From Myxococcota bacterium (GTDB lineage Bacteria; Myxococcota_A; Polyangia; Nannocystales; Nannocystaceae), in the NCBI GenBank assembly GCA_039028615.1, contig JBCCHT010000030.1, positions 28,151-92,150 on the forward strand: 64,000 nt of DNA, read 5' to 3'. A program made the position numbers and the translations under genes. Below the pieces are notes generated by a model, which worked only from the letters and a program-made list of their open reading frames with translations, ran no database searches and was not told where the DNA came from. Positions 14,097 through 59,507 of this stretch are shown piece after piece (the stretch's first letter is position 1; every line of letters begins with the position of its first letter).

Positions 14097-15920
14097 GTGG
14101 TCGAATCTAGTGCACACCATGACCTCGCAACACTTCTGCGATCGGGCGCCGGCAAAGACATTCTCTCGGGTCTCCGTGGTGTAAGTCTCGCAGAGAACAA
14201 CCTCCAGGGGGCTGACCTCCGAGAAGCTGACCTCCGAGAAGCTGACCTCCGAGAAGCTGACCTCCGAGAAGCTGACCTCCGAGAAGCTGACCTCCGAGAA
14301 GCTGACCTCCGAGAAGCTGACCTCCGGCGAGCTGACCTTGCTGGAGCAGATCTCCGAAGCGCTCGACTTGCAACAGCAGATTTTCGAGGAGCCAACCTCT
14401 ACGCCGCTGATATCAGAGAGGCTACTCTGTCCAATATCAGTGCCCCGGGCGATTCTTCATATCGAGGAATCGCAAAATTCCAAGGCTGTAATCTTCACAG
14501 AGCAAATCTGAGCAACACAGATCTTTCCTTCGCCAGCTTCCATGGAGCACTCCTCTACCAGGCGAACCTTCACTCGACACATGGATATGACCCGCAATTC
14601 CAAGGCGCGGATCTAGCTTTTTCACAGATCCAGAAGGTCAAGTGGACAGGAGCCAACCTACAGGGCTCCAGGGCATGCTATTCCTTCATATACAAATCTG
14701 AACTAAGAGAAGTCAACATCAGAGGCACAGACCTACGGAACGCACTAGCACTCCGATCCGACCTAAGCCGAATTAACACACGAGGCACAAGGACAGAAAG
14801 CTCCGTTGTCGACTTCCTCTTCGGAAGGGCGCTTTCTCGGAACCCCAAGAGACGAATCTCAGAGCTCGCAGGACGTCTAGTACTCGAAAAGAGGGATGAC
14901 CAGTTAGAACAAATACGCCTAAGCCTGAAGAACCACTACCACAAAGGCGAAGATCTAAACAACGAAGAGATTCACTGGTTTGACCTCGAAGGGAACGACT
15001 ATACTCAAGCGGACTTCGAGGGGGCCTCATTTTCAGGCTACAATTTCCGAAACGCATGCCTCACGGGAGCCAATCTCATCAGGGCCAATCTTCGAGGCGC
15101 AGATCTTCGAGGTGCAGACCTTCGAAACGCGAAACTCTCCTTTGCAAGCCTACAGGGCGCGAATCTTGAAGGTGCGGATCTGGAGGGCGCAGACCTGGGC
15201 AACGCAAGCGTCGCTGGCGCGGATCTTCAAAATGCCTGTCTGAGAGCCTCGAATTTATCCGGCGCGGACCTTCGCGGAGCAAGCCTGGAAGGAACCACTC
15301 TCGAGGCAGCGAATCTCGACAACGCTGACATCCGAGACATATACACCGACAAGCACACATTGTTCGCGGCGAGCTCCCTCGATGGGGCAGTGATCAGAAG
15401 TTACACAATCGTAGATGTCGACAACATATCCGACCGTCAGAAGATACGACTCAACATCCATGACTCCCTCGCAGAGCTCAGGAGTGACTACTCTGGACTC
15501 TGGCTTTGGTTTCACCTAATAGCGCTCATCGCGTTCCTATCGCCGTACCTGTCCTTTATCGGCCGCGCCCTCGCGCTCTCGGCCATAACCCCTCCATCAG
15601 AGGGGGCTCATTCGCTCGCCTTTGAGCTCGGATGGTACATATTGTCCGGCGGCGATGGAACGCATGAAATCAGCGCAAAGTTCTACTTGTTCATTATTGG
15701 GATTTTGTACAACGCCATCCGAGGAGCATTGCTCTACAAAACCCACTCGCTGATGCTTCAGCAGGAGATCTCCCAGCTACCACTAATGTACATACTAGAA
15801 AATGACTACTGGTGGAACCTAGCGCACAAGACCGCAAGAACCATGTTTCGGATCAACCTCTTTATCGTCGCAGTTCATTTGCTCATGTTTTTTCAACAAC
15901 CCGTGGTACTAACGCTCTAG
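14097..15920 (+). CDS. pentapeptide-repeat protein with C-terminal multi-TM domain
   Basis: A(D/N)LxxA repeats across ~400 aa incl. ADLRE x8, ANLRGADLRGADLRNAKL; C-terminal hydrophobic helices; GTG start uncertain. Confidence 0.8.
   Translation: MVESSAHHDLATLLRSGAGKDILSGLRGVSLAENNLQGADLREADLREADLREADLREADLREADLREADLREADLRRADLAGADLRSARLATADFRGANLYAADIREATLSNISAPGDSSYRGIAKFQGCNLHRANLSNTDLSFASFHGALLYQANLHSTHGYDPQFQGADLAFSQIQKVKWTGANLQGSRACYSFIYKSELREVNIRGTDLRNALALRSDLSRINTRGTRTESSVVDFLFGRALSRNPKRRISELAGRLVLEKRDDQLEQIRLSLKNHYHKGEDLNNEEIHWFDLEGNDYTQADFEGASFSGYNFRNACLTGANLIRANLRGADLRGADLRNAKLSFASLQGANLEGADLEGADLGNASVAGADLQNACLRASNLSGADLRGASLEGTTLEAANLDNADIRDIYTDKHTLFAASSLDGAVIRSYTIVDVDNISDRQKIRLNIHDSLAELRSDYSGLWLWFHLIALIAFLSPYLSFIGRALALSAITPPSEGAHSLAFELGWYILSGGDGTHEISAKFYLFIIGILYNAIRGALLYKTHSLMLQQEISQLPLMYILENDYWWNLAHKTARTMFRINLFIVAVHLLMFFQQPVVLTL
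14211..14330 (+). repeat. perfect 15-bp tandem repeat gctgacctccgagaa x7 plus one imperfect unit, encoding (ADLRE)n
   Basis: direct reading of sequence 14211-14330; in-frame inside pentapeptide-repeat gene. Confidence 0.9.
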
Positions 15921-17096: not shown

Positions 17097-21773
<4,677 letters not shown>

Positions 21774-30280: not shown

Positions 30281-32854
30281 ATGAACGGATCCCCCTTCGA
30301 TCCCGCGTCGTCCGTCCCGGACATCGAGCACCAGGTCGTGCTCGCCGAGGTCGAGGCGGGGCTCTTCGGCTCGACCCCCGGGGTGGAGATCGACCGCTAC
30401 CGCATCGTGGGACGACTGGGGCGCGGGGGCATGGGCGTGGTGTATCGCGCCCAGGACCCACAGCTCGATCGGGCGGTGGCGCTCAAGCTCTTGCACCCTT
30501 CCGAGCCCGGGACGGCACCGCGTCAGCGTCAGCGTTTGCTCCGCGAGGCGCGAGCGCTCGGCCGCCTCGATCACCCCAACGTGGTCACCGTCTTCGACGT
30601 CGGACTGGCGGGCGCTCAGGTGTTCGTGGCCATGGAGCTGTGCGAGGGCATGAACCTCGAGCAGTGGCTCGCCGACTCCCGGCGGAGCGTGGCGGAGATC
30701 GAGCGGGTGTTCGCAGCGGCGGGCCACGGGCTGCTCGCCGTCCATCGGGCGGGCCTGGTGCACCGCGACTTCAAGCCGAGCAACGTCATGGTCGGTGACG
30801 ACGGCCGCGTGCGGGTGCTGGACTTCGGGCTCGCCAAGTCGGTGTCGGAGCAAGCCGTCATGACCACGACCGACGAGGATCGTGCGCCCCCATCGGCCGC
30901 CGAGCTGACCGGGCGTGGCGCCGTGGTCGGCACGCCTCGGTACATGGCGCCCGAGCAAGCGCGAGGAGAACGAGGGGATGCACGCGCCGACCAGTACGCG
31001 TTTTGTGTCGCCCTGCACGAGGCGCTCCTCGGCTCGGTGAGCGCCGAGCCCGACTCGCACCTGCCTCCCACGCCCCACGGACACGTCCGCCGACGGGTTC
31101 GCTCGGCGATCGTCCGAGGCCTGCAGCGCGACCCGAACGACCGCTTCGACGACCTTCGGCCGCTGCTGTCCGAGCTGGCGCGACCGCGTAGGGCTCGATG
31201 GCTGGCCGCGCTCGGTGGGGCCGCCGTCGTGTCCGCGGCCTTCATGATGACTCGGTCGCCGTCTCCCGATCCCTGCGCCGATGCCTCGGCGCCCATCGAC
31301 GCGGTGTGGAGCAACGCCGCCCGATCGGAGCTTCACGCCCACCTCGCCGGGCTGCCGCGGCCCTTCGCGGCCGACACGGCCCAGCGGGTCGACACGCGCC
31401 TGCACGCCTACACGGAGGCGTGGCGAGCCATGGCCCGCGACAACTGCGAAGCGACCCGCGTCCACGACGAGCAATCGTCGGCCACCGAGACGCAGCGCAG
31501 AGCATGCCTGGCGGGTCGAGCCGATGCCCTCGCCGCGATGGTCGAAACGCTTCGGGCGATCGATCCCGAGCGGCTGCGGACCGCGGTGGCGGCCAGCGGG
31601 AGCCTGCCCAAACTGGAAGGCTGCGGGCCCGGACCCCACTTGGCCGAGACCTCGTCCAACCCCGCCGACCCGGCGCATGCCCGCCGCGTCCGGGCCCAGC
31701 TCGCGCGCGTGCGGGCGCTGCTACGAACGCACGACTACGCTACCGCCGAGCGCGTGCTGGAGCCCATTGCCGCCATGGTCGGGCCGCCGAGCGATGCCGG
31801 CTTCGATCCCGTCCTGCAGGCGGAGCTGCGCTATGCACAGGGCCGCGTGATGTCGCGGCTGGGTCGTTACGACGACGCCGAGCGGCACCAGCGCGAGGCC
31901 GTCGAGGGCGCGCTCGAGTTTCGCCGCGAAGCGCTCGAGGCCGAAGCGCGGGTGGACCTGATGCGACTGGTCGCGACTCGCCACCCCGAGGACATCGACT
32001 CGGTCCGCAACGAGGCCCTCGCCGCGGCGCGACGCCTCGCCGATCCCGGGGTCTTGGTGATGGCCCTGCGGCAGTCGGCCGCGACCCGGACCACCCCCGA
32101 GCAACGCGACCAAGCCCGACGAGAGCTCGAGCAGGCGCTGAGCCTGAGTCGCACCATGCCCGATGGCGCCCTGGCCGAAGCGGCGACCCGCGTCGCGCTG
32201 GGCATCTGGCACACGCAGCGCGAAGACTTCGCGGCGGCGACCGAGCAGTTCGAGCAGGCCTATGCGCTCGAGCTCGACACCCTGGGGCCCGATCATCCGC
32301 GGGTCACCCTCTCGCTGCGCAACCTGGCCGCCGTCCACCGCACCATCGGCGATCTGCCGCAGGCCCAGCGCGAGCACGAACGCGTCATCGAGCTGCTGTC
32401 GGTGGCCCTGCCCCCCGATCACCCCGAGCTCGCCGTCGAGCTGGCCAACCTCGGCGGCGTGCACCTCGATCTCGGTCGGCCCGAGCACGCCGCTCGCCTG
32501 GCCGCGCGAGCGGTGAAGATCTTGGAGCGCAGTCGGGGCCCCGATCACCCCGAGGTGGCCTGGGCCGCGAGCTTGCAGGCAATCGCGCTGCGACAGGCGG
32601 GATCGTCTGCCGAAGCGGTCGAGGTCTCGACCCGCGTCGTCGAGATTCACGAGGCCAATTCCGAGACCCCGAGCCCCGAGCTGGCCGCCGCGTGGCTGGA
32701 GCGGGCCCGGGCCCACCACGGCGCAGGACAGTCGGCCGAGGCCCACGCTGCCGCGCTGCGGTCGGGGACCCTCGCGCAGCAGGCGGGCAACCAAGCGCTG
32801 CAGCACGAGGCGGAACAGCTCGCTCGGGAGTGGTCGCAACCCGCGACGGAATGA
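30281..32854 (+). CDS. Ser/Thr protein kinase with long C-terminal helical/TPR-like repeat domain
   Basis: GRGGMGVVY, VALK, HRDFKPSNVM, DFG, GTPRYMAPE; divergent from the ECF sigma gene. Confidence 0.85.
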   Translation: MNGSPFDPASSVPDIEHQVVLAEVEAGLFGSTPGVEIDRYRIVGRLGRGGMGVVYRAQDPQLDRAVALKLLHPSEPGTAPRQRQRLLREARALGRLDHPNVVTVFDVGLAGAQVFVAMELCEGMNLEQWLADSRRSVAEIERVFAAAGHGLLAVHRAGLVHRDFKPSNVMVGDDGRVRVLDFGLAKSVSEQAVMTTTDEDRAPPSAAELTGRGAVVGTPRYMAPEQARGERGDARADQYAFCVALHEALLGSVSAEPDSHLPPTPHGHVRRRVRSAIVRGLQRDPNDRFDDLRPLLSELARPRRARWLAALGGAAVVSAAFMMTRSPSPDPCADASAPIDAVWSNAARSELHAHLAGLPRPFAADTAQRVDTRLHAYTEAWRAMARDNCEATRVHDEQSSATETQRRACLAGRADALAAMVETLRAIDPERLRTAVAASGSLPKLEGCGPGPHLAETSSNPADPAHARRVRAQLARVRALLRTHDYATAERVLEPIAAMVGPPSDAGFDPVLQAELRYAQGRVMSRLGRYDDAERHQREAVEGALEFRREALEAEARVDLMRLVATRHPEDIDSVRNEALAAARRLADPGVLVMALRQSAATRTTPEQRDQARRELEQALSLSRTMPDGALAEAATRVALGIWHTQREDFAAATEQFEQAYALELDTLGPDHPRVTLSLRNLAAVHRTIGDLPQAQREHERVIELLSVALPPDHPELAVELANLGGVHLDLGRPEHAARLAARAVKILERSRGPDHPEVAWAASLQAIALRQAGSSAEAVEVSTRVVEIHEANSETPSPELAAAWLERARAHHGAGQSAEAHAAALRSGTLAQQAGNQALQHEAEQLAREWSQPATE

Positions 32855-40659: not shown

Positions 40660-42954
40660 TCACGCGTCAGCGATAGCAGCCGGAAGCAATACCTTGATAT
40701 CGTCGGGGAGCGGCAAGTCAGCGGCGCGACTGGCCATCACGATGCCCTTTTGGATCTCCTCGGTCAGAGGTTGGAACGTCTCCGGAAACTCGGCGAGAAC
40801 GGGGTGAATCGCACGTAGCCCCTCTGCGAACGACTTCAGAGCCTTCGCATGCTCACCCATCGCGGTTTGCACGACTCCCCTCAGGCCAAGTACGCGAGCC
40901 AACCCGGAGCGAAATGCACCAGGAGACTCGTCTGCCAGCCGCTGGTAGATGCCAACCGACTCATCGAGCGCCTCCAGAGCCTCTTCACCGTGACTCGCTC
41001 TCCATAGATCTGCACCGAAGTTCCCGAGGACACGCGCAAGGTTGGAGGACATCTCGTGCGGCCGCTGCTCGGCCAAGGTTCGACAAAACTCTACCGCCTC
41101 CCTCGTTACCTCCAGTGCCTCCTCCGTTTTTCCGAGGTCACTCAGCCGGTTGCCGAGATTGCTCAGTGCACCCGCAAGGTCCGGCAGAGTCCCGCTTGGG
41201 TTTTGTTCGGCCGCAACTCGGTGAATGGAGACGGCCTCCTGAGTCACCAGCAAAGCCTCGTCGGGTCGATCTCTGTGCGCGAGTTGAATACCGAGGTTAT
41301 TGAGGCCATGTGCAAGGTCGCCCAGGTAGACTTCAGGCTGCTCGTCGGCCAGCTGGCGAAGGATCGCGACGCTCTGCTCCGCGACCTCCAACGCTTCCTC
41401 GTGCCGCCTCAACTCCCCCAACCGATTGCCGAGATTAGTGAGAGAACGCGCCAGATCGGGCGCATAGACGTCGGGCTTTTTCTCCGCAAGTTCCCTGTAG
41501 AGTTCGACGGCTTCTCGACTGGTTTGCCGCGCATCCTCGAGTTGCCCCACTTCGCTCAATCGAATGCCGAGGCTGTTGAGGCTGTAGGCAAGACTCGGCA
41601 GGAAGCTCTCGGGTTGGTCCTCGACCAAGGCTCTACGGACGTCCACGGACTCCTGTGTGATCCGCAACGCTTCCTCGCGACGTCCCAAGTCGCCCAACAT
41701 CTTGCCCAAGTTGTTGAGCGACGCAGCGAAGTCGGGAAGCAGTTCTCCCGGCCGCTCCTCGACCAGCCCCCGTCGAATCTCGACCGCTTCGGCCATCGCA
41801 TCGAGCGCCTCTTCGTGCTGCCCGACGATACTCAGTCGATTCCCGAGGTTGTTGAGACTGCCCGCCAAGTCGGAGAGAAAGTCCTGCGGTCGTTCTTCGG
41901 CCAGTCCCCTCCGAATCGAAACCGCTCTCCGATCGGACTCCAATGCATCGCTCAAACGCCCCATACGGCTAGCAGCCGTGGCGAGCGTACTCAGGGCGCG
42001 AGCGAACTCGGGAAGAAGCTCTTCGGACCGTTCCTCGGCCGGCTGGTCGTAGACGAGCCGTTCCAGGATGTACGTTGCTTCCTCGCTGGCGCGGTGTGCC
42101 TCTCGATGGGAATCCAGCTGAACGAAGCTCACCGCCAAGTTGCTCAGAGCCTGCGCAAGTTCCGGTTCGAATGCGGCCGGGTCCTGACTCGCGAGAACGC
42201 GGTACATCGCGACCACCTCCGCCGATGTCTCCGCCGCCTTCTCGAATCGACCCGCTGCACTCAGCCGTTCGGCGAGCCTCTCCTTGGTTCGTGCTTGCTC
42301 CGCCAGCCCTTCGTACTCGAGCAGGTCACGACTGCGACGAACGTCCTCGTCGAGAAGCACGGGGTCCACGAACGAAGGCAACACGCCCTCGAATCGCTCT
42401 TCCAGCCCCTCACTGGCCAGCTCGGCACCATCTAGCCGGGAGTCCTCCAGTTCGGCCCCGGCTGGCAACTCGAACACGAAGTTTCGAATCGACCAAAGGT
42501 CGGGGCCGGCTCGGCGAAGCTCGGGCTTGAGATCAGGGTGGGCGACGAACACCAGGCCCCCCGCCAAACGGTCTCGAATGAGCTCCCGCCGCTCGTTGGC
42601 TCTCAGGATCAGGCGAACCCACGCATCTGTCCACGCCGGCCCGTCCACGGTCCCACCTCGTACCGCTTCGATCCACGTGCAGCCCGCAGCGTCGCCGTCG
42701 AGCAGCTGCCGAAGAGTCCGTCCGAGTTCCACGGGGGTCCCCGGTCGTAGGATCCGTTGCGTTCGTGACTCACCCTCGCGCCCCTCGAGGGCTCGTTGCA
42801 GCCGCCGCTGGAGGATATGGGCTTGGGGTGGCGACTTCGTAAACACAAACGCGAGCCAAAACCCCCGCCCCCAGTCGATGTGACGCTGAAGACGCGAAGC
42901 AGCGTGCAGAGTCTCGGGCGATGGCGCGAAGCTCCGCGACGGGCCGCCGCTCAT
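40660..42954 (-). CDS. TPR-repeat protein (764 aa): ~200-aa N-terminal domain of unknown function followed by >=10 TPR_12-like repeats
   Basis: recurring LA.SLNNLGNRLS..G..EEAL repeats; start overlaps upstream NTPase stop by 4 bp (ATGA). Confidence 0.8.
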   Translation of the reverse strand: MSGGPSRSFAPSPETLHAASRLQRHIDWGRGFWLAFVFTKSPPQAHILQRRLQRALEGREGESRTQRILRPGTPVELGRTLRQLLDGDAAGCTWIEAVRGGTVDGPAWTDAWVRLILRANERRELIRDRLAGGLVFVAHPDLKPELRRAGPDLWSIRNFVFELPAGAELEDSRLDGAELASEGLEERFEGVLPSFVDPVLLDEDVRRSRDLLEYEGLAEQARTKERLAERLSAAGRFEKAAETSAEVVAMYRVLASQDPAAFEPELAQALSNLAVSFVQLDSHREAHRASEEATYILERLVYDQPAEERSEELLPEFARALSTLATAASRMGRLSDALESDRRAVSIRRGLAEERPQDFLSDLAGSLNNLGNRLSIVGQHEEALDAMAEAVEIRRGLVEERPGELLPDFAASLNNLGKMLGDLGRREEALRITQESVDVRRALVEDQPESFLPSLAYSLNSLGIRLSEVGQLEDARQTSREAVELYRELAEKKPDVYAPDLARSLTNLGNRLGELRRHEEALEVAEQSVAILRQLADEQPEVYLGDLAHGLNNLGIQLAHRDRPDEALLVTQEAVSIHRVAAEQNPSGTLPDLAGALSNLGNRLSDLGKTEEALEVTREAVEFCRTLAEQRPHEMSSNLARVLGNFGADLWRASHGEEALEALDESVGIYQRLADESPGAFRSGLARVLGLRGVVQTAMGEHAKALKSFAEGLRAIHPVLAEFPETFQPLTEEIQKGIVMASRAADLPLPDDIKVLLPAAIADA

Positions 42955-45601: not shown

Positions 45602-47536
45602 GTGCCCGGACCACAGCCGCGCGCTAGGCTGACGATAGCGCTCCCCTCCGTGCCGCCCGAAGCTTCATCCTCTCCGTCGCCGGACTACGAGCTCACCAAC
45701 GAGATCGGTAGTGGGGCGATCGCAACGGTGGTGCGCCTGGTCGAGCGCCACACGGGCTCGGTGTACGCGGGCAAGCTGTTGCACGAACGGCACGGGCGCG
45801 ACCCCGCGGCGAGCCGTCGCTTTCATCGCGAGGCGGAGCTCTCCTGCGGCCTGGGGCACGACAACCTGGTGCGGGTCTACGGCACGACTCGGATTCGCGG
45901 TCGCATCGCACTGTTGATGGAGCTGGTCGAGGGTCCGACGCTGGCTCAGCATCTCGCCCGGCAGGGGCCTCTGGCCGAGGCCGAGCTGGTGCCACTCTTA
46001 CTGGGCATCGCGCGAGGGCTGGCCCACGCCCATACGGCGGGAGTGATCCATCGCGATCTCAAGCCGGCCAACATCCTGCTCACGCCGAGCTTGGTCCCGA
46101 AGATCGCCGACTTCGGCATGGCCCGGGCGTCGTCGTTCGCCAGCGCCGACAAAGGGGCGCTCACCGTGCTGGGCACGCCGCAATACATGGCGCCCGAGTG
46201 CCTCGAGCCGCTGGCCGTCGACCCGCGCACGGACCTGTACGCGCTGGGCTGCATCCTGTTCGAGCTGGCCACGGGGGCACCTCCGTACAGCGGGGCCACG
46301 CCCTTTGCCGTACTCGACCAACACCGCAATGCGCTGAGACCCGAGCTGCCCGCGACGTTCTCTTCCAGCCTACGCAAGCTCTGTACGAGGCTCATCGCCA
46401 AGGCGCCCGGCGATCGACCCCAGTCGGCCAATGCGGTGATCGAAGCGCTCGAGCGCTGCGCGACCGCCCACGGGGCCTTGGTACCCGTGTCGGATTCCAC
46501 CGCCCTGGTCGGCGTCGACCCGAAGGAAGCGGCCGATGGGCGCTGTGCGGGCTGCGGCGCAGCGGTGCTGCGAGAGACCCGGGTGTGCTTCGGGTGCGGC
46601 CTGCTGCAAGCGATGATCGAGCCGGGGTCGAGCACGCTGTTCGTCACCGGTCCGGGCGCGGTGTCCCACAAGCTCGACAGTGAGCTGCGCGATCGATTGC
46701 TCCGCTGGCTGCAGGCCAACGAGGCCGTCGGCCTCGACCCCAGTGAGCTCGAGCGGCGGATCCCTCGACTGCCGTTTCCTTTGCTCACGGGGATCAGCCC
46801 CCGCAGCGCGGAGACGCTCCGTGCGTCGCTCCAGCACCTGGGCATCGAGACGTCGTGGAACCCGGGCGGGCGCCTGGCCAACCTGCAGCTGTTCAACAAG
46901 ACCAACAAGCTCGCCGGGCGCACCATGGCGATCTGCTTCGCCGTGCTCGGGGCTCCGATGATGATCAACCCCGCGTTCGCGATCTTCACCCTGCCCGCGC
47001 TGGTCGCCTGCTTGCCCTTCGTCTACGGCCTGACCCTGGCTCGGGTGTCGCGACCCGCCGTGCGCCTGAGTCGGGTGCCGAGCCACGGGCTGCCGCCCCA
47101 GGTCAAGGCGAGGCTCGATGGCATGCCGCAGGTGGTGGGGCAGCTCGGGCAGCGACGGCATCGCGAGGCGCTGCGGGCCGTGGTGCACCGGGTCATCACC
47201 CTCAGTCGCAACACGCCCGCGCAGATCCAGCCACAGATCGATGCCGAGATGAACCATGCGATGGCGCTGGCCACCGCCGCGACGCTGCGCATGGACGGGC
47301 TCGATCGGCAGATGTCGGCGCCGGGCTTCGATCCCGCGGAGCCCACGGCCCGGGCGGTGATGCACGAGCGCGATCGCTGGGCCGCCCGCTTGCTCGATCT
47401 CACCGCGACGCTCGACGCCCTGACCGCCCGACAAACCGCCGCCCAGGTGCAGGCCCTCGACGCGGCGAGCGTGCCCGGGCAGCTCGATGAGCTGCGTGCC
47501 ACCGTCGAAGCCCTCGAGGAGGTCCAGCGCGCATGA
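45602..47536 (+). CDS. Ser/Thr protein kinase with C-terminal extension
   Basis: IHRDLKPANILL, DFGMA, GTPQYMAPE. Confidence 0.85.
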   Translation: MPGPQPRARLTIALPSVPPEASSSPSPDYELTNEIGSGAIATVVRLVERHTGSVYAGKLLHERHGRDPAASRRFHREAELSCGLGHDNLVRVYGTTRIRGRIALLMELVEGPTLAQHLARQGPLAEAELVPLLLGIARGLAHAHTAGVIHRDLKPANILLTPSLVPKIADFGMARASSFASADKGALTVLGTPQYMAPECLEPLAVDPRTDLYALGCILFELATGAPPYSGATPFAVLDQHRNALRPELPATFSSSLRKLCTRLIAKAPGDRPQSANAVIEALERCATAHGALVPVSDSTALVGVDPKEAADGRCAGCGAAVLRETRVCFGCGLLQAMIEPGSSTLFVTGPGAVSHKLDSELRDRLLRWLQANEAVGLDPSELERRIPRLPFPLLTGISPRSAETLRASLQHLGIETSWNPGGRLANLQLFNKTNKLAGRTMAICFAVLGAPMMINPAFAIFTLPALVACLPFVYGLTLARVSRPAVRLSRVPSHGLPPQVKARLDGMPQVVGQLGQRRHREALRAVVHRVITLSRNTPAQIQPQIDAEMNHAMALATAATLRMDGLDRQMSAPGFDPAEPTARAVMHERDRWAARLLDLTATLDALTARQTAAQVQALDAASVPGQLDELRATVEALEEVQRA

Positions 47537-49476
47537 GTTCTTCTCTGCCGTGGCTGCCCTGGGGCCATACCGTGCTCGACGGGCCCATCGACGTCGGCAC
47601 CGAGCAGCGCTGGCGCGTGCAGCTCGAAGACGGTCGCCGTGTGCTGGTGGGTCAGCTCGCGTCCGACCTCGCGCGCGACGAGTCGATCCGCCGCCGCTAC
47701 GCGCGAGATGCCGAGCGCGTGCAGGGCCTGCCCGCCCACGCGCTGGTGCCCACGCTCGCCGTCGGGCCGCAGCCGGATCCCCGAGCCCCCGATGACATCG
47801 CCCCGTGGCGAGCCCGTCTCGATCCCACTGGCGAGACCCTCGAGCAGTGGCTGCGCCGCGCCCCCGTGGCGCTCGAAGAGCTGGTGGCCGTGTTCGCCGG
47901 CCTCGCCGATGCCCTGCAATCGGTGCACGGCAGCGGCGCGGTGCTCCGTGACCTCCGCCCGTCGCAGGTCCTGCGGGCCCACGACGGCCGCATCCTGCTC
48001 ATCGACGTGGGCCTGTCGCGGGTGGACGTGCTGTCGAGCCATACCGCCTCGAGTTTGTTGATGCAGGGCTCGGCCTACGCCGCACCCGAGCAAGTGCACC
48101 AGACCGCCGTCGACCAGCGCTCCGATCTGTATGGCCTCGGGGTCATGCTCTGGCAGGCGCTGACCGGCATGCTGCCCTTCGGCGAAGGCCCGGCGTTCTT
48201 GCGCGAGCGTACGCCGCTGCCCGCCCTGGCCACGCTACGTCCCGATGCTCCGCCCGCCCTCGACCTGCTGGTGCGAGCGTGCCTGCACGAAGACCCGAGC
48301 CGACGACCGGCCACCGCCAGCGATGTCGCCTGGGTGCTTCGCGGCGGGGCTCCGACCTCCCTCGCCGAGCAGGCGACCACCGTGTGTCAGCACTGCGGCC
48401 ACCGCCTCCGGGTCGGTCAACGGCTGTGCCTATCGTGTGGCCGCGTCGCGGTGCGCTTCGTGCCGCCCACCCCCGGCGAGCCCGGCATCGGCATCGACCT
48501 GCGTCGCCTCGACGAAGACGCGGGCAAGCTGCGCTGGCTCCAAGGCTTCATCACCGACATCGCCAATCCTCCGGTGTCCATACCGGAATTCATCGTCGGC
48601 CCCGCCCACCTGTACGCCGATGAAGAGCGACACCGTCGCATCCGCTTGCCCACGCGCCTGTTCGGCAACCTCAGCCAGGACAGCGCGAAGGCCATGGCCG
48701 AGCGCATGCGCAGCGAAGGACTCGACGTCCACCTCTCCGGCCCCGCGCAGATCCACGCCGCGGGCAAGGTCGTGAGGCGCACCGCAATCGCCACGCTCGG
48801 CCTCACCTTGATCTTGGGGCTGGTGGGCCTCGGCATCGCGGCCGGGGTCGTCTTTGGGCTCGGCCTGGTGCTCACGCTGTCGATGTCCGCCCGCTACAAC
48901 TCGGTCAAGGGCTGGGTGCAGCAGACCCATCCTCGCTTTCGGGTGCGGCCCCAGCCGGCGGCCTTGCCCGCGTCCGATCCCCTGGTCGCCCGCCTGGCGG
49001 CGCTGCTGCAGACTACCGAGCACGGCGAGGTTCCCGGCGACGTACGCGAGGTCGTGGGCGAGCTCGCGCTGCTCATGCAGCGCCTGGTCGACCACCGGGC
49101 CACGGTGATCCGCGACCACCGTGAACTCGACATGCTGGCGCAACCGCTGGTGCCGCTGGTCAGCGCCATCGAGGGCCTGGTGCAACAGCTCCATCGCATC
49201 GGCCACGAGCTGCGAGAGCTCGACGAGGGCGCCATGGTGCGCGCCCTGGCCACCTGCGAGGCCCGAGGCGAGGGACCGACCAAACGCGAGCCTCTGCTCC
49301 AGGGACTCGATCGTTTGCGCGCGCTCGAAGACCGCCGCGCCGAGGTGTTTCACCGACTGCTGGAGGCCCGATCGCTGCTCGCGCGCACCGTGGAGATGGG
49401 CTTGGCCGTCCACGATCCCGCGCTCGAGCACGAGCGCCAGGTCGCGCAGGCACTGGCTGCGCTCGGGCCGAGCTGA
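47533..49476 (+). CDS. Ser/Thr kinase-like protein (HRD->LRD variant) with zinc-ribbon and predicted TM segments
   Basis: VLRDLRPSQVL, IDVGLSR, AYAAPEQ; CQHCGHRLRVGQRLCLSCG; TM IATLGLTLILGLVGLGIAAGVVFGLGLVL; start overlaps upstream kinase stop (ATGA). Confidence 0.75.
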   Translation: MSSSLPWLPWGHTVLDGPIDVGTEQRWRVQLEDGRRVLVGQLASDLARDESIRRRYARDAERVQGLPAHALVPTLAVGPQPDPRAPDDIAPWRARLDPTGETLEQWLRRAPVALEELVAVFAGLADALQSVHGSGAVLRDLRPSQVLRAHDGRILLIDVGLSRVDVLSSHTASSLLMQGSAYAAPEQVHQTAVDQRSDLYGLGVMLWQALTGMLPFGEGPAFLRERTPLPALATLRPDAPPALDLLVRACLHEDPSRRPATASDVAWVLRGGAPTSLAEQATTVCQHCGHRLRVGQRLCLSCGRVAVRFVPPTPGEPGIGIDLRRLDEDAGKLRWLQGFITDIANPPVSIPEFIVGPAHLYADEERHRRIRLPTRLFGNLSQDSAKAMAERMRSEGLDVHLSGPAQIHAAGKVVRRTAIATLGLTLILGLVGLGIAAGVVFGLGLVLTLSMSARYNSVKGWVQQTHPRFRVRPQPAALPASDPLVARLAALLQTTEHGEVPGDVREVVGELALLMQRLVDHRATVIRDHRELDMLAQPLVPLVSAIEGLVQQLHRIGHELRELDEGAMVRALATCEARGEGPTKREPLLQGLDRLRALEDRRAEVFHRLLEARSLLARTVEMGLAVHDPALEHERQVAQALAALGPS

Positions 49477-52501: not shown

Positions 52502-54037
52502 CTACTCGACGATGTCCGTGGCCTGCACGGCGTCGAAGACCGCCTCGTCGTCGATGACGTAGAAGTCCTCTTCACCCCCGCTGCCGCCGCCCGGCAGCGG
52601 CTCGACCTCCACGCAGTCCTCCTCTTCGTCGAGCTCGTAGCCGCCTTCGGATGCGATCGAGCTGGCGATCGTCGCCACGACGCCGGCCGCCCACGCGTAT
52701 AGCGGCGTGGACTCGCAGCTCTCCTCGAAGACGTAGTGCCGAGCGACCTGCTCCGTGCACGAGGCATCCAGGTAGCGATTGCGGAGGTGGGCGGGATTGA
52801 TCGGCGCGCAATCGAAGACCTCGGCCTCGGGGTCCTCGGGGGAGATCGAGTCACGCCAGTCGCACGCCATGTCGTCGAGCAGGGTGTCGAAGGTCCGCCC
52901 CGAGGCCATCAGCCGACCTCCCGAGGGGCCCGCGTAGATCTCGTGCCGCAGGCGAGTGCCGCCTTCGTTCTCGACCGGAGCGATCGCAAACGCCTCATCA
53001 TCGAGGGGCGCCCCGACCGTCCACGTCCGAATCGACCCCGACAAGCTCGCCTCGACACAGCCCGAGTCACTCATGCGGTACACGGTCTCGATCTCCTCGA
53101 CGACCTCGTGTCGGCCCACCACGTCCTGGCAGAAGTCGGTCCCGCCCTCCTCCTCGCGAGCGGTACCGACGACCTCGGACGGGTGCACGCACTGGGCCAG
53201 CGCCACCGGTTCCGAGCAGGTCGAGTCGGTGAAGTAGAGCTCGGAGAGGCGCGGCTGGTGGCGAGAGAACCACCGGCGCTGCCCCGAAGCGTCGGCGGAG
53301 GGCCGCACTTCCTCTTCGTGCACCGTGTCCCACGCCCCGAAGATCTGCTGGGCTCCGTCGTCGGCGACGAGCAGCATGGGCACGACGCGATCATTGCCCT
53401 CCAGCGGGGTCACGGTGGCGCCGACGAAGTCGGTGTTCGAGACCAACGCCACGCGGACGGCCTCGTCGTTGGAGAAGAACTCGCACGGCCCGTTCGCGGT
53501 GTAGTAGATGGCCTCGACCGGCTCGAGGAGCTGGTAGTAGGTTTGGTCGAAGCAGCTGTTGCCCCGCACCCGCACGACGCTGGCTCCGTCGGGGATCGCC
53601 CCGGTCTGCATCGCGGGCTCGGTGCAGTCCGGGTCGGCGTAGTGCCAGATCTCGGTGGCCCCGTAGGTGTCGGTCAGGCAGCGCAGGCCAGCGTCATCGG
53701 TGTATCGAAACTCGCAGCGGGTATCGAGCAGAGTGTCGTGCCACCCGTTCGGAATTCGCGTGCCGTCGTCGGCCACGCGAAAGACCGGGCGCAACCGCGA
53801 GCCGGCGACGGGCTCCAGCAGGTCGCCCCAATCATCGGGCTCGAACACCTCGCCGGAGCTGCTCTCGTCGGCCCCGGCACCGTCGGACGATTCGTCGTTG
53901 GTCGGAGCCTCACCCCCATCGGTGCCTCCCTGACCCGGCGGCGATGACGACGACGGGCCACATGCGACCACCATCGACGCGGCGAATGTCAGCGAGATAC
54001 GGCTACACCATGCATAGGATAAATCTAAGTAAGTCAT
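52502..54037 (-). CDS. Cys-rich lipoprotein (511 aa)
   Basis: signal/lipobox FAASMVVAC; about 20 Cys. Confidence 0.55.
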   Translation of the reverse strand: MTYLDLSYAWCSRISLTFAASMVVACGPSSSSPPGQGGTDGGEAPTNDESSDGAGADESSSGEVFEPDDWGDLLEPVAGSRLRPVFRVADDGTRIPNGWHDTLLDTRCEFRYTDDAGLRCLTDTYGATEIWHYADPDCTEPAMQTGAIPDGASVVRVRGNSCFDQTYYQLLEPVEAIYYTANGPCEFFSNDEAVRVALVSNTDFVGATVTPLEGNDRVVPMLLVADDGAQQIFGAWDTVHEEEVRPSADASGQRRWFSRHQPRLSELYFTDSTCSEPVALAQCVHPSEVVGTAREEEGGTDFCQDVVGRHEVVEEIETVYRMSDSGCVEASLSGSIRTWTVGAPLDDEAFAIAPVENEGGTRLRHEIYAGPSGGRLMASGRTFDTLLDDMACDWRDSISPEDPEAEVFDCAPINPAHLRNRYLDASCTEQVARHYVFEESCESTPLYAWAAGVVATIASSIASEGGYELDEEEDCVEVEPLPGGGSGGEEDFYVIDDEAVFDAVQATDIVE

Positions 54038-54200
54038 GGCTCCGAGGGTGTCTTCGAATGCCCTCAAAGACCAGGCCTCGAATCCACCCCTCGCGTAGCG
54101 CGATGAAAACGGAAACACGCGCCGATCGAACCACGGTCATGCCACCGCCCTTCGGCCCTGCTCGGTGTCCGCAGCGCGCGCAGGTGCCCGTGGGCGCGCG

Positions 54201-54854
54201 TCAGCCCACGCGCATGCTGACGCTCAACCCGTCGCCGATGGGGATGATCGCCGTCTTGAGCCGCGAGTCGTTGTGCGCCCGCTTGTTGTAGCGCCGCAGT
54301 CCACTCGTGGCCGGGTCGTCGCAGCCCGAGTCCTCGGTGGTTCGACCGCTCCACAGCACATTGTCCGCGATGATGAGCCCACCGGGGCGCACGCGCTCGA
54401 TGGCCGCCTCGAGTGCATCGGGGTAGACGGGCTTGTCGTGATCGATGAACACCACGTCGAAGCTCCCGGGCAAGCTCGCCAACGCGGACAAGCCATCGGT
54501 ACCGTGCAGGGTGATCCGCGACTTGTAGGGATGACCGGCGAAGATCTCGTCGTGCGCAGAGAGGATGTCCGCGTTGGGCTCGGACCCGTGCACCTCTGCC
54601 TCGCGGCCTGCCCCGCGCGCGAGGAAGTAGGCCGAGTACCCGAAGCCGCTGCCGAACTCGAACACTCGCTTGCCGCCGATCATCGAGGTCAGCAGCTCGA
54701 GCCAACGCGCCGCGTCGTGGCCCAGCCAGGGGAAGCCGCGCTCGCGCGCGAACGCAGCCATGCGGATCACCAGAGGATCACCCTCGAAGGCCAGGCCCGC
54801 GATGTAGCGGCCGACGGAGGGCTCGAGGATGTCGAGGAGTGGGCTATCGGTCAT
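54201..54854 (-). CDS. class I SAM-dependent O-methyltransferase (caffeoyl-CoA OMT-like, family 3)
   Basis: VFEFGSGFGYSAYFLA (motif I), RPGGLIIADNVLW. Confidence 0.8.
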   Translation of the reverse strand: MTDSPLLDILEPSVGRYIAGLAFEGDPLVIRMAAFARERGFPWLGHDAARWLELLTSMIGGKRVFEFGSGFGYSAYFLARGAGREAEVHGSEPNADILSAHDEIFAGHPYKSRITLHGTDGLSALASLPGSFDVVFIDHDKPVYPDALEAAIERVRPGGLIIADNVLWSGRTTEDSGCDDPATSGLRRYNKRAHNDSRLKTAIIPIGDGLSVSMRVG

Positions 54855-56570
54855 GACGTGGCTCCCTGGGTGACCGCGAGGTCACGGTGTATCGAATCCG
54901 ACGAAGCGCGCGGGGCCGGCCGCTGCAGAGCCAGGCACAGCTCGCGAACGACTCGAGCCTCGGGCAGCGCACTGGCCGGGTCGAGGTCGGGACGAAGGTC
55001 CCCGAAGATGTCTGCCGCCGCACCCGGGCTCCCGAAGCCGAGCTGGGGCGAGGTCTGCTCGAGGGTGGTGCTCCACCACTGGCCGCCGAGCGAGGTCTCG
55101 TGGCGCTGCAACGCGGCGACGACCGCCTGCAGCGGGCGCCGCGGCGGCAGGCGATCGCGAACCCCGATGAACCACGACTCGTTGCGATACAAGAAGCGGT
55201 AGCGCGGCCCGTCGGGGGCGTCGTGCACGAGCAGCACCCGGGAGTGCTCACCCGCGGCGTGGATCAGCGCGATGCGAGCGAGCGGCTCTCGGACACGCAC
55301 CACCGCGAGATCGGCCGCTTCGTGGTGTTCGACCTGCACCCCGGACCGGGTCTCCACCCGCCGCAGATCGGCCATGCAGCGATCGAAGCGCTCGGCCCAG
55401 ACCTCGCGCAGAGCGAAGGGCTCGCGCAGGTACTCGTGCAGATGCGCGATGGCGTGGCGATAGCAGAGCTCTGCCCGCGAGTCGTAGTCGGTGACCGTGG
55501 CCAATGACCCAGCCAAGGGCGAGCGCGGAGCGTCGCGCAACGCCCAGATCGTCAGATCGATGGCCAGCGCATCCTCGCCGTTCCACGTCCGAAAGTCGCC
55601 GGTCGCCGCCGTCCGCACCATGAGGTCTTCGTGCTCGAGGGCGCGCTCGGGGTGCAGCAAGGCAAACGCGGCCAGGGCTCCGTCGGTGTCGTAATGATCG
55701 TTGGTCACCACCGAAAAGGGCCCCAAGGCGGAGGTGCGCTCGGCCGGCGACAGCCTCGCCCAACGCAGGGCCATGCCCGTGCTGAGATCATGGCTGAGCG
55801 CAGGAGGGGGGTTCGACCCCGGCCAGTGGCTCAGGCACCGCAGGCCTACCACGAAACCATCGACGCACAAGGTGTCGGCGGGATCGAGGCCCGGGCGGTG
55901 AATTCGAAACTCGGCGGTGCGAGCCCGCTGCGGCTGCGACCGTTCTTGGCCGAACGCCGGGCCCCCGGCATCGAGGTACATGCGCTCGTCGAGGGTATCG
56001 GGGCGACCGAGCGCCTCGTTCCGATGCGGATAGCGGCCGTAGCGACGAATGATGCGCTCGTGCACTTTGGCCACCTCGAGGGCGTGCTCGGCATGCGGGC
56101 GATACCAGCTGTGCTCCGGGGTGGCCGCGAGCTCCTGCTCGAAGTAGGCGACGCACCGCTGCTGGTCTTCGAGGCTCTCGGCGTGCTGGAGCGGCAGGAA
56201 GTAGAACGCACGCTCGGCCGGCCCCAGCTGCGTGTGCAGCCCTTCACCGAGCCCACGCAGGCAGAGGTCGCGCGCGAGTTCGTCGTAGGCGTAGGCCTGC
56301 GGCGTGCCGCGGTGCATGTTGCGAGGGAACTGATCGAGCAGCACCACCAACGCCAAGCTGCCGCGCGCCGTCGTGGCCCAGTGATCGAGGGCGCCCGTGG
56401 CGGCGAGCTCGACCGCCGCGCCGAAGCGGGCGCGGACCTGGCCGTCGACCGCCTCGCCGCCGTAAAACCACAGGTTCATGCGCTGGCGGTAGGTCGCGTC
56501 GTCGTACTCGTCGTGGCCGAACCAGTACTCGAGGACGTCGTGCGGCTCGATGCTCGCGGCCTCGCTCATG
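54851..56570 (-). CDS. DUF924-family domain (DQFPRN motif) fused to ~370-aa C-terminal domain of unknown function
   Basis: start MSEAASIEP at 56570 (aggag RBS, ATGA overlap with P450 stop); LLDQFPRNMHRG; C-terminal part unassigned (weak DHH-like NDHYDTDGALAAFAL). Confidence 0.65.
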
Positions 56571-57921
56571 CGGACTCCTGCGACCGGCAGGTGACCACCA
56601 TCGGCAGCTCGAGATCGGCGGGATAAATGACCCCGGCCGGCGACGCGTCGTAGGCCACCACGTGCTCGGCCCGGAGCTTCAGGCGAAAGCGCGAGGCGAT
56701 GGCGGCGATCATGATCTTGGCCTGCCGCAGGGAGAGCTGCTCTCCGATGCAGCGGCGCACGCCATACCCGAAGGGGATGAACGCGGCGGGCGGCACCTTG
56801 CGATGGTGCTCGGAGCCTTCGATCCACCGCTCGGGCAGGAACGCGTCGGGCTCGGGCCAGATCTCGGGATGGCGATGCAGCATATAGGGACTGATGTGGA
56901 GGCGGCTGCCCGCGGGCACCAGATAGGGCCCGCAGGTCCAGTCCTCGACCACCACGCGCGGCATCAGGGCCACGGGCGGATACAGGCGCAAGGTCTCCTT
57001 GAGCACCGCGTCGAGGTAGGTGAGCTGCGCCAAGTCGTCGACGCCGGGCGGACGACCCTCGAGCACGCGATCGAGCTCCTGCTCGACCTTGGTCGCCACC
57101 TCGTGGTTGTTGGACAGCGCATACCAGACCCACGAGGCCATGACCGCGGTCGACGAGTGGGACAGCAACAGCACGCATAGCTCGTGCACCAGGCCCCGCT
57201 CGGGGAAGTTGCCCTCGGCCCCCTCCATCAGGGTAGTCATGGCCGGCGTGTGCGGACCCGGAGACTTCTCGGCCTGGGCCACGATCTCGCCCACCGCCTC
57301 GTCGAGGGCCACGAACGCGGCCCGACGGTTCTCGAAGCTGAAGCGCTCGCGCTCTTCCTCGCTAATGTGCGAACGACCAGCGAGGCGCTCGAGGTTCGTC
57401 AAGAACTCTCGAACCGGGGCCAGACCCTCGCGCGCCGCGTCACCGATGAGGGTCTGCGCGATCATGTCGAGGCTGAGCCCCATCATGTCGGTCAGCGTGT
57501 TGCGAACCTTGCCGTCTTCCCAGCCGGCGACGCCCTCGTCGAGCGCACCCAACATCGCGTCGTGGCGAGCGGCGAGCGAGCGCGGGTTCATGGCCGCATG
57601 CACGATGCTGCGCGGCTTGGCACGACCGCGGCCGTGGACGGCCAAGAAGCTCTTGTCGAGGTAGAGCCACCCGTCGGTCATCGCATTGTCGATACGAGTC
57701 CAGTCGGTGAGCGCCGATCGGCAGATCGCAGGATCGTTGATCAAGTAATACCAATCACACTCGATACGATAACGGCTGATGTCACCAAAATCTCTCACCA
57801 TCGACTGTATGAAGCCGAGGCGATGGCGATAATAGTCCAGCGCATTTCCGAATATGACATCACCGATCGGACCCTCGGGATGGGCGGGAGTGGGGGTGGC
57901 TGCGCTGTCTGGAGTCATGGG
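56566..57921 (-). CDS. cytochrome P450
   Basis: ETLRLYPP (ExxR), LPERW, heme-binding FGYGVRRCIGEQL. Confidence 0.85.
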   Translation of the reverse strand, partial: PMTPDSAATPTPAHPEGPIGDVIFGNALDYYRHRLGFIQSMVRDFGDISRYRIECDWYYLINDPAICRSALTDWTRIDNAMTDGWLYLDKSFLAVHGRGRAKPRSIVHAAMNPRSLAARHDAMLGALDEGVAGWEDGKVRNTLTDMMGLSLDMIAQTLIGDAAREGLAPVREFLTNLERLAGRSHISEEERERFSFENRRAAFVALDEAVGEIVAQAEKSPGPHTPAMTTLMEGAEGNFPERGLVHELCVLLLSHSSTAVMASWVWYALSNNHEVATKVEQELDRVLEGRPPGVDDLAQLTYLDAVLKETLRLYPPVALMPRVVVEDWTCGPYLVPAGSRLHISPYMLHRHPEIWPEPDAFLPERWIEGSEHHRKVPPAAFIPFGYGVRRCIGEQLSLRQAKIMIAAIASRFRLKLRAEHVVAYDASPAGVIYPADLELPMVVTCRSQESA

Positions 57922-57997
57922 TCCTGGGGGGCGAAGGGAGGACGCGGGTCCCGAGAGACCCGCGCCCAATGGCTAGTTTGGGGGCTAATCTGGAGCC

Positions 57998-58237
57998 TTA
58001 GAGCTGGCTCGCGCCGCCCTTCCAGACCGGGGTGCACTGGGCACCGCCGGTCACGGCCGAAAGCTCGGCCTCGGCCAGCTCGCCGTAGGCGGCACGATAC
58101 TCGTCACCCGTGAAGGTGAAGCCGGCGGCTTTGCCCGCGGCCACGACCGAGTCGACGCTCCAGTCAGCGCTGCTGATATTGGTCTGCAGCTCGGGGTTGC
58201 TGCGGAGATGGCTAATGAACGCCTTTGCGGATTTCAT
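57998..58237 (-). CDS. Nif11-like leader peptide RiPP precursor (79 aa): leader ends ..AELSAVTGG, core AQCTPVWKGGASQL
   Basis: MKSAKAFISHLRSNPELQ..SVDSVVAAGKAAGFTFTGDEYRAAYGELAEAELSAVTGG matches Nif11/N11P leader pattern with double-Gly site; 76 bp upstream of P450. Confidence 0.75.
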   Translation of the reverse strand: MKSAKAFISHLRSNPELQTNISSADWSVDSVVAAGKAAGFTFTGDEYRAAYGELAEAELSAVTGGAQCTPVWKGGASQL

Positions 58238-58300
58238 GTTGTGAGAGCTAGTCCTACGAATCAATGATGTCAACTCAAACAACCACAATTTAATCGATCA
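58238..58300 (-). promoter_or_regulatory. putative promoter of the precursor gene (minus strand): TTGACA, 17-nt spacer, TAGCTC, very short leader
   Basis: reverse complement reads ..gagTTGACAtcattgattcgtaggacTAGCTCtcacaacATG; -10 match is weak. Confidence 0.25.
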
Positions 58301-58892
58301 TCAACCAGTTGACAGTTGTATACCTACGAGCCGATTCCGCAGCCATCAACCACACAAGGCGTCGCAGAGCTTATTTAAACGCTGGATCATAGTGTCGAAA
58401 ATTATTCGTACTCGAGATTCGGAATCACGCATTGAAACCAAACATGCACAACAAGGGTCTCCCCGAGAAGAGCAAACCATCACAGTTCATCGACTGTCAC
58501 GATTCCCCAAAACGAGTGAAACATCGGGCGGGCGCCCTCGATGATGCACGCGGTCTTGGTTTCGGCCCATACCGAAGCAGGGCCACGCACGCGTCGTGGT
58601 CCCGGGGCGATCGCAGCGGTGCTGCGCTTCAGGGATGAAGTCTTCCGGCCCGGCCACGCAGTCGATGGTGGGTTCCGTCTCCGGGCGCAACGCACCCGTG
58701 GGCGCTCCGAAAGAGCGAATGTCCGTGCCCTGCCTTTGCAGCCGGCACATTCGAATCTGACGGACGTCGCCGAACTAAATTGTTCGCGGTCTCATCACGC
58801 GCGACCGTAGTTCGGGATCGCTCGGCTCCGATGAACCGCGGCCGCGATCCCCCGCGTGCGCGGGACCGCTCGCGAGACCCTCGCCAGAGGTT

Positions 58893-59507
58893 TCACGCGG
58901 CGGCGTGAGCTGAGGACCTTTGACGATTCGGCGGTTCCGTGCACGTGGTCACGGCGTCTGCGGCAGTGGCCATACGTACCTGCACCCGGCGCTCACCGGC
59001 CACCAGCGTACTACCCGAGGGCACCACGGCCCCCGGACGCAGCACGATCCACGTGCTCCGATCGCCGGCCAGGTTCTGCACGAACGCTCGCTCGTCGCGA
59101 AGCATCACTTGGAGATGGAGCTCGGCCAGGCGTTCGTCCCCCGGCAACACGATGTCGCCCGCCTCCCGACCGAGCGTCAGCGAACGACCGCGCAGGGTCA
59201 TCGCCATGAGCACGTTGCCGTTGACGTCGAGCACATGGAGCCGAGGTACCCCGGCACCCGCCTCGAAGCGCAGCCACTGACGACCCGCCCCGATCCAGTC
59301 TCCGTCGTGGAGCTCGGTCGGCACCGCGACCTCGAGCAAGACGTCCATGCTCGTCGGATCGAAGTCCACCTCGATCGCGTGGCCGTCGACGGCACGGACC
59401 CGAAACGTGCCGCGCTCGCAGGCGACCTCGGCGGCCTCCCGGGGCGACAGGGCAAGCGACTCGCTACGCGTGATCGGGGCTCCGTTGTTCATCGACAAGC
59501 TCTGCAC
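58893..59507 (-). CDS. FHA-domain protein
   Basis: ..IVLPGDERLAELHLQVMLRDERAFVQNLAGDRSTWIVL.. resembles FHA core. Confidence 0.5.
   Translation of the reverse strand: MQSLSMNNGAPITRSESLALSPREAAEVACERGTFRVRAVDGHAIEVDFDPTSMDVLLEVAVPTELHDGDWIGAGRQWLRFEAGAGVPRLHVLDVNGNVLMAMTLRGRSLTLGREAGDIVLPGDERLAELHLQVMLRDERAFVQNLAGDRSTWIVLRPGAVVPSGSTLVAGERRVQVRMATAADAVTTCTEPPNRQRSSAHAAA

Follow-up and report, generated by a model that had tools for sequence, protein, structure and literature searches.

A Nif11-type precursor peptide encoded with a cytochrome P450, a DUF924-DUF6687 protein and an O-methyltransferase in Myxococcota: a proposed operon for a tryptophan-modified peptide

Some peptides made on the ribosome and modified after translation (RiPPs) carry a Nif11-type leader, among them the prochlorosin ProcA peptides, which ProcM matures and a C39 ATP-binding cassette (ABC) exporter cuts. 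Cittilin is formed from a precursor of 27 amino acids (aa) without a Nif11 leader, and biaryl and aryl-ether bonds link the tyrosines of its YIYY core. According to Hug et al. 2020, as cited in PMC11659900, the cittilins (CitA/CitB/CitC of Myxococcus xanthus) are RiPPs made with a cytochrome P450 and an O-methyltransferase. In general, the RiPPs of P450 macrocyclases are formed by coupling the side chains of two aromatic residues (Tyr, Trp or His), and the biarylitide precursors measure only 5 aa (PMC12002111, PMC11659900). The P450 ApyO requires Arg or Lys in its substrate (PMC13192836), and the apy cluster contains a multinuclear non-haem iron-dependent oxidative (MNIO) enzyme, a B12-radical S-adenosylmethionine (SAM) enzyme and RiPP recognition element (RRE) proteins (PMC11117315). 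Oxidation of tryptophan is known from the biogenesis of cysteine tryptophylquinone (CTQ), in which QhpG dihydroxylates Trp (PMC7876137). Here, we describe a small operon led by a Nif11-type precursor peptide gene in a 64,000-nucleotide stretch of contig JBCCHT010000030.1 of a Myxococcota bacterium; this whole stretch is referred to below as the window.

The operon consists of four genes on the minus strand, in the order precursor, P450, DUF924 + DUF6687 fusion and O-methyltransferase, with the precursor as the first cistron. The precursor gene (57998..58237) was recognised from the sequence, hidden Markov models (HMMs), codon statistics and the NCBI entry MEM7157640.1. It is followed by the genes for the cytochrome P450 (56566..57918; 450 aa, start MTPDSAAT; PF00067, 169 bits), the fusion protein identified by HMM scan (54851..56569; 572 aa) and a class I SAM-dependent, cation-dependent O-methyltransferase of the caffeoyl-CoA/catechol type (54201..54854; 217 aa; PF01596). 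The start of the fusion gene overlaps the stop of the P450 gene by 4 nt (ATGA) and the methyltransferase start overlaps the stop of the fusion gene by the same length, which indicates translational coupling of the three enzyme genes. We propose, with a probability of roughly three in four, that this operon makes a tryptophan-modified RiPP. The system is an uncharacterised variant of the P450-modified RiPPs, with two domains of unknown function as conserved partners.

The window DNA has a G + C content of about 68%, and 107 open reading frames (ORFs) of at least 50 aa were counted in 14 kb, an abundance that speaks for a chance frame in GC-rich DNA. As chance ORFs are so plentiful, the length of 79 aa is not significant by itself and other evidence is required. 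The ORF runs on the minus strand from the ATG at 58237-58235 to the stop codon at 58000-57998 (79 codons), and its recomputed translation, the leader MKSAKAFISHLRSNPELQTNISSADWSVDSVVAAGKAAGFTFTGDEYRAAYGELAEAELSAVTGG followed by the core AQCTPVWKGGASQL, is identical to the one on which the original prediction of a precursor peptide was based. The plus-strand frame over 57998-58237 was rejected as a different, meaningless ORF unrelated to the precursor. The predicted Nif11-like leader was borne out by both models, Pfam Nif11 PF07862 (36.8 bits, cut-off 23.8) and NCBIfam TIGR03798 leader_Nif11 (52.5 bits, cut-off 32.3), with scores above the curated cut-offs. The G + C content at the three codon positions (GC1/2/3) is 0.60/0.54/0.84, with a GC3 of 0.84 in the neighbouring P450 gene and 0.89 in the methyltransferase gene, so the precursor has GC3 of the coding type. 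Moreover, the 12 nucleotide differences from the orthologue at the related locus L014 amount to 11 synonymous and one non-synonymous codon changes, and the homologues comprise at least 13 sequence-distinct, conserved forms. The gene had also been expected to be invisible to most gene callers, which proved wrong: in the NCBI Prokaryotic Genome Annotation Pipeline (PGAP) its entry is MEM7157640.1, named 'Nif11-like leader peptide family natural product precursor' [Myxococcota bacterium], and the homologues were likewise called by the pipelines that produced the Logan, ENA and JGI records, so that several pipelines called the gene independently. Together, these results refute a chance open frame, the probability of which is negligible. 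The precursor ORF is a genuine gene under purifying selection, with a Nif11-type double-glycine leader, and it is very probably a real RiPP precursor belonging to the P450 cassette.

The leader comprises 65 aa and ends in AELSAVTGG, while the core comprises 14 aa and has, when unmodified, a calculated monoisotopic mass of 1444.713 Da. Read from the sequence, the leader end (LAEAELSAVTGG, directly followed by the A of the core) presents the double-glycine pattern L-12, E-8, L-7, V-4, G-2 and G-1, and the GG is kept in 12/12 aligned homologues. The boundary proposed after the GG fits this canonical pattern and is also consistent with the C39-peptidase ABC exporters encoded in homologous clusters. 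The leaders of the precursor homologues are 51-78% identical and share the clade-specific invariant residues W26-S27 and Y51, and their cores are hypervariable. The core at this locus contains one Cys, one Trp, no Tyr, no His and an internal GG, as had been predicted, together with Thr and Ser; the internal GG is not kept among the homologous cores and has no meaning at the level of the family.

The comparison of 13 distinct cores showed that Trp is the sole invariant core residue (13/13). It is directly followed by Lys in 12 of them and by Thr in the remaining one, and a Cys stands four residues ahead of it in 10/13. The three cores without Cys (ASAAWK.., VSAAWKK.. and LTPAWKTQG) start exactly four residues before the Trp, as does the core CNANWKK... 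A second Tyr, His or Trp was found in none of the 13 cores, so the exclusion of a biaryl coupling of the cittilin or biarylitide type holds for the whole family, and no conserved Ser/Thr position was found in the core alignment. Chemistry centred on Trp, the only invariant core residue, is favoured, in line with the original prediction. A more distant Nif11-type peptide returned by the profile search (P0240, 78 aa, 53 bits), which ends in AAGRECNCGWKDFGF, also has a C-x3-W-K motif.

The order precursor, P450, DUF924/DUF6687 and O-methyltransferase is kept in 9/9 lineages in which the flank is visible. The cassette was found at the loci L014, L012, L013, L001, L017/L113, L114, L115, L097 and L099, in two of which (L097 and L099) DUF924 and DUF6687 are encoded by separate genes. 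The P450 of L014 is 92% identical to that of the window, and the P450s of different branches of the clade are 42-45% identical. Among the matches listed, identities of 43-44% are followed at once by values of 32% or less, so the P450 clade stands isolated. Most of the P450 orthologues were recovered through the search with the fusion protein and not through the word-indexed search with the P450.

The same synteny bears on the reading that the peptide is matured by a different system encoded elsewhere, for example a LanM as for the prochlorosins, and that the adjacency of the P450 is incidental. Many Nif11-leader peptides are LanM substrates, and the window core does contain Cys, Thr and Ser, which would suit such a system. 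However, the precursor adjoins the P450 gene in all nine lineages despite P450 identities as low as those given above, no LanM, radical SAM or YcaO protein is among the gene calls obtained at the related loci, the cores conserve neither Ser nor Thr, and the leader clade stands apart from other Nif11 leaders. This reading is very improbable and is already contradicted by the synteny. The P450 is thus a conserved neighbour of the homologous leaders, as anticipated, and neither an exclusive linkage of these leaders to LanM or to peptidase-containing ABC transporters (PCATs) nor a P450 operon that had lost the ORF was observed.

The precursor family is very rare and apparently confined to Myxococcota (metagenome-assembled genomes (MAGs) of the Nannocystaceae type). 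The word-indexed search with the precursor in 5.8 billion clusters gave 3 matches, while an exhaustive search of 1.84 billion representatives (50% identity) with a profile gave 5 precursor representatives of at least 94 bits, with other Nif11 leaders at 53 bits or less and an unrelated 476-aa repeat protein (P0239) at 77.5 bits. The latter shows 8 leader-profile matches through its AYGFTISYDELRRLL repeat, which is probably a chance resemblance. In a further protein (P0244, 137 aa), the leader is fused in frame to a P450 N-terminus; this probably reflects a frameshift in a related cluster or an artefact of its assembly. When metagenomes were scanned with the alignment of the precursors, the number of relatives was 0. 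The extreme rarity of the family explains why it is unstudied.

The scan of genome contigs with the fusion alignment settled on DUF924 patterns and returned mostly generic stand-alone DUF924 genes of Proteobacteria without precursor, P450 or methyltransferase, and the relevant loci among its results were only L017 and the partial L018. Likewise, the metagenome scan with the DUF6687 alignment returned only distant JGI copies (29-39% identity) without the cassette, and a DUF6687 copy from Planctomycetota (L101) stands alone, with no precursor, P450 or methyltransferase nearby. It follows from these distant copies that DUF6687 as such is not specific to RiPPs.

Some of the related loci show additional features. 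Locus L097 (Nannocystaceae MAG GCA_040883285.1) contains another P450 paralogue from this clade, in divergent orientation, and an extra fused DUF924-DUF6687 gene after the exporter genes (1728-3101 and 13996-14677), besides the stand-alone DUF6687 that adjoins the P450 there; the tail of L018 has the same arrangement. In L097 (7362-8780), L099 (5483-6910) and L098 (3007-4521, opposite strand), the methyltransferase gene and the GAF-HlyD/PCAT genes flank a gene for a protein of about 470-500 aa without a Pfam match, and this protein may be a further conserved component of the sub-family with split domains. The UbiA, Coq4, PhyH and cyclase genes that lie upstream in L014 were considered as genes served by the P450 and rejected, because collinearity with the window does not extend to them and none of the other loci has them.

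Genes for HlyD and a C39-peptidase ABC exporter are present in cis in eight lineages, three of which have a second ABC gene. The module follows the methyltransferase gene in L012, L113, L114 and L115, and lies upstream of the precursor in L001. It is missing locally in the window and in L014: tblastn with the PCAT and HlyD of L012 found neither a C39 exporter nor HlyD in the 64 kb, which also contain no second Nif11 peptide. As no C39 exporter is encoded in the window, the exporter would have to act in trans in this genome. The same absence, shared with the locus carrying the 92%-identical P450 and set against the eight other lineages, would also fit an incomplete or silent remnant, the peptide of which is never exported or matured. 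Against a remnant stand the strong purifying selection seen when the window is compared with L014 (11 synonymous to one non-synonymous change), the four intact ORFs with coupled starts, and the fact that the visible DNA is 64 kb out of a contig that measures at least 156 kb; in addition, action of PCATs in trans on Nif11 precursors is frequent, the prochlorosin system being an example. We consider a remnant quite improbable.

The P450 contains the heme motif FGYGVRRCIG, the EXXR motif and PERW/F. By sequence type it is CYP3A/CYP102/CYP170-like, with the best solved relatives at about 100-117 bits, and its best NCBIfam matches lie far below the cut-off (pentalenene oxygenase, 150 bits; the RiPP P450 ApyO, NF050147, 137 against 525 bits). 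The acid-alcohol pair of the I-helix is replaced (SHSSTA); in the 11 aligned members of the clade, the sequence reads S-(H/N/S/T)-x-S-x where BM3 has A-G-x-E-T. The NCBI record of this protein, MEM7157639.1, gives 371 aa, while the Logan call gives 450 aa. Alignment with 10 members of the P450 clade shows conservation from about residue 13 onwards (GPxGHxLFGN) in the 450-aa reading, and the start of the deposited coding sequence is probably placed about 79 codons too far downstream, judging from this alignment.

The methyltransferase scores 92.4 bits with PF01596 (cut-off 22) and its closest solved relative is 5lhm/5log (83 bits). Its motifs FIDHDK and ADNVLWSG are matched in the alignment by FIDADK and LDNTLWSG of 5lhm, motifs that in the family of cation-dependent O-methyltransferases provide the metal-binding Asp/Asp/Asn and the catalytic Lys. 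The enzyme is present in each of the nine lineages in which the downstream flank is visible. A metal-dependent methyltransferase of the catechol type needs an oxygen nucleophile, and neither the Trp nor the Lys of the core has one; therefore, at least one product of the P450 is most likely a hydroxy- or dihydroxy-indole.

The alternative is that the P450 only forms a cross-link and couples the Trp indole, with no net insertion of oxygen, to a non-aromatic partner. This partner could be the Cys thiol (a C-S bond of the tryptathionine or chuangxinmycin kind), the side chain of the Lys or, in a pyrroloindoline, a backbone amide, and the methyltransferase would then act elsewhere, e.g., on a carboxylate, thiol or amine. 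The I-helix acid-alcohol pair missing across the P450 clade and the conserved C-x3-W-K motif are both in keeping with such a coupling, and P450-made indole C-S bonds occur in small-molecule pathways, e.g., that of CxnD in chuangxinmycin. Moreover, the characterised RiPP P450s in a 2024 review are all macrocyclases (PMC11659900). However, a methyltransferase that retains the metal and Lys motifs of the catechol enzymes accompanies the P450 in 9/9 visible lineages and, if the P450 installed no hydroxyl, it would find no O-nucleophile on any invariant core residue; in addition, Cys is missing in three and Lys in one of the 13 cores. On balance, a cross-link without oxygen insertion is unlikely.

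The AlphaFold model of the fusion protein is confident (pLDDT, predicted local distance difference test, 92.8), and its DUF924 domain is all-helical and resembles tetratricopeptide repeats (TPR). DUF6687 has the invariant motifs SHWPG, NDHYDTDG and GD and no DHH triad, and its conserved His/Asp cluster suggests a metal site.

The proposed maturation of the tryptophan-modified peptide would start with the docking of the precursor on the modification proteins by means of its leader, for which the TPR-like DUF924 is the best candidate binder. The P450 would then oxidise the invariant Trp to a hydroxy- or dihydroxy-indole, possibly catechol-like, which the catechol-type methyltransferase would O-methylate; we consider the chances of this hydroxylation followed by O-methylation, as predicted from the sequences, to be about even. 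In members with a Cys in the core, including that of the window, the Cys thiol may add to the oxidised indole and close a five-residue C-x3-W thioether ring, although such a Cys-Trp thioether is doubtful. The Lys after the Trp may be a recognition determinant of the P450, as is the Arg or Lys needed by ApyO, or a further cross-link partner. The DHH-like DUF6687 may carry out one step, probably metal-dependent, and a C39 ABC exporter would finally cleave after the GG and secrete the 14-mer. In the most far-reaching version, which would be first in its class, a single Trp would be the reaction centre of the P450 and the hydroxy- or quinone-indole would be O-methylated and captured by the Cys at -4 (and possibly by the Lys at +1) in a cross-link like those of tryptophylquinone or tryptathionine within a small peptide that is secreted, with the TPR-like DUF924 as binder of the leader and the DHH-like DUF6687 as a metal enzyme; this version as a whole is speculative and improbable.

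Several points weigh against this proposal. The modification steps are all deduced from gene content and residue conservation. The missing I-helix pair is the one usual for the activation of O2 in hydroxylases, and a coupling fits its loss at least as well. Neither a ferredoxin nor a reductase is encoded nearby, and in the window no gene for a protease or exporter lies near the operon. The absence of Cys from 3/13 cores means that a Cys-Trp link cannot be the step that defines the family. The label DHH-like for DUF6687 derives from weak fold scores with no PDB sequence match, and the profile search with this domain against PDB sequences gave only noise. Finally, conserved residues may stay unmodified, e.g., the Cys of ApyA (PMC11117315).

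The spacer of 79 nt between the precursor and P450 genes contains a perfect GC-rich hairpin of 12 bp (57940..57967, minus strand; identified by folding), GGGCGCGGGUCU-CUCG-GGACCCGCGUCC, without a U-tract. In 8/8 loci (window, L014, L012, L013, L001, L017, L097 and L099), a strong GC-rich hairpin occupies the interval from the precursor stop to the P450 start; the stems measure about 10-19 bp, lack a U-tract and are unrelated in sequence between the loci, while L014 retains the stem of the window through two paired changes. The hairpin is probably a partial terminator or attenuator, or a stabiliser of the mRNA, that would raise the ratio of precursor to enzymes.

The non-coding region upstream of the precursor (58238..58540, minus strand) is AT-rich, with 47-52% GC compared with about 68%, and is conserved with L014 and L015. 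It contains a TTGACA at 58268-58273 (minus strand), i.e., at -36 to -31 relative to the precursor ATG, which is part of an inverted repeat TGTCAAC...GTTGACA (about 58267-58315, some 30 nt apart) that is kept in L014 and L015. The region is a putative promoter or operator. If TTGACA served as a -35 box, the mRNA would be nearly leaderless, and the alternative is an operator. The scan of 57800-58900 with sigma-70 promoter and intrinsic terminator consensus sequences gave neither a full sigma-70 site nor a terminator, and no Rfam family matched in the upstream region.

The window and L014 are collinear over the operon and its downstream flank, while the gene between operons and the far upstream flank differ. 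A 204-aa ORF upstream of the precursor (58893-59507, minus strand) has GC3 of the coding type (0.82) and no Pfam match; it is kept in L014 (8397-9002) and was not seen in the other clusters. Directly downstream of the operon, the window encodes an acidic, Cys-rich DUF7481 protein (52502-54118, minus strand), and the same site in L014 is occupied by a protein with an Ig-like HYDIN/VesB domain (13869-14927). As both sides of this site are collinear between the two loci, the gene downstream of the operon has been replaced locally, and the DUF7481 gene was rejected as a member of the cluster because L014 has a different gene in its place. The other genes of the window are typical Myxococcota content: a large helicase of the Lhr type, Ser/Thr kinases (one with TPR repeats), a 764-aa TPR protein and a 1672-aa glycoside hydrolase with GH15 and alpha-amylase domains. 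These genes lie at 17097-21773, 23272-28290, 30281-32854, 40660-42954 and 45602-49476, and none is linked to the peptide operon.

In the literature, in which subscription journals were thinly covered so that an earlier description is possible, we found no account of a Nif11-P450 pairing, of DUF6687, of DUF924 in a RiPP context or of P450 RiPPs with Trp-Cys or Trp-Lys links. The reviewed RiPP P450 macrocyclases each join two aromatic side chains, while the P450 of this family is offered a single one, the invariant Trp, within a near-invariant C-x3-W and W-K context. This suggests a type of peptide chemistry that has so far gone undocumented among bacterial P450s, either hydroxylation of Trp with O-methylation or cross-linking of Trp with Cys or Lys. 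DUF924 (structure 2i6h), which has no known function, and DUF6687 thereby gain a defined and testable biochemical context; if the single-Trp reading is true, it would give DUF924 and DUF6687 their first function and add a new kind of component to RiPP maturation. The pathway is compact, with four to seven genes and a core of 14 residues, and its heterologous reconstitution should be straightforward.

Compared with the described Nif11-leader precursors (TIGR03798; e.g., prochlorosin ProcA), the system is alike in the leader HMM, the double-glycine site, the hypervariable core and, in the homologous clusters, the C39 ABC exporter with HlyD. It differs in its partners, which are the P450, DUF924/DUF6687 and O-methyltransferase instead of a LanM, radical SAM, YcaO or acyltransferase enzyme. 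It does not belong to the prochlorosin-type lanthipeptides, as the gene calls of the related loci contain no lanthipeptide synthetase domain and Ser/Thr are unconserved. The P450 is not close to any characterised P450. ApyO has the best-scoring model among the RiPP P450s, with a score well short of the equivalog cut-off given above; its need for Arg or Lys parallels the conserved Lys beside the Trp, whereas it couples two Tyr in a YLY motif and the window core has a single Trp. Its partners, the MNIO and B12-radical SAM enzymes, occur neither in the window nor in the related loci, and the RRE proteins of the apy cluster are likewise absent here. The biarylitides, myxarylin, the atropopeptides and other P450 macrocyclase RiPPs are similar in having a P450 gene beside the gene for a ribosomal substrate. 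However, they require two aromatic residues, and the 13 cores contain a single Trp each and lack Tyr and His.

The linking of an oxidised Trp to a nearby Cys has a parallel in CTQ and in the tryptathionine of amatoxins and phallotoxins, by analogy only. In amanitin and phalloidin, the W-x3-C spacing of the cores equals the i/i+4 spacing found here, in the reverse order. The CTQ and tryptathionine systems use flavoenzymes, and CTQ is a protein cofactor and not a secreted peptide. The cittilins are the nearest in spirit, sharing with this system the myxobacterial origin, the P450 together with an O-methyltransferase, and a small operon with the precursor gene at its head, while the peptides described here are distinguished by a single aromatic residue per core, a leader of 65 aa and the additional DUF924-DUF6687 protein.

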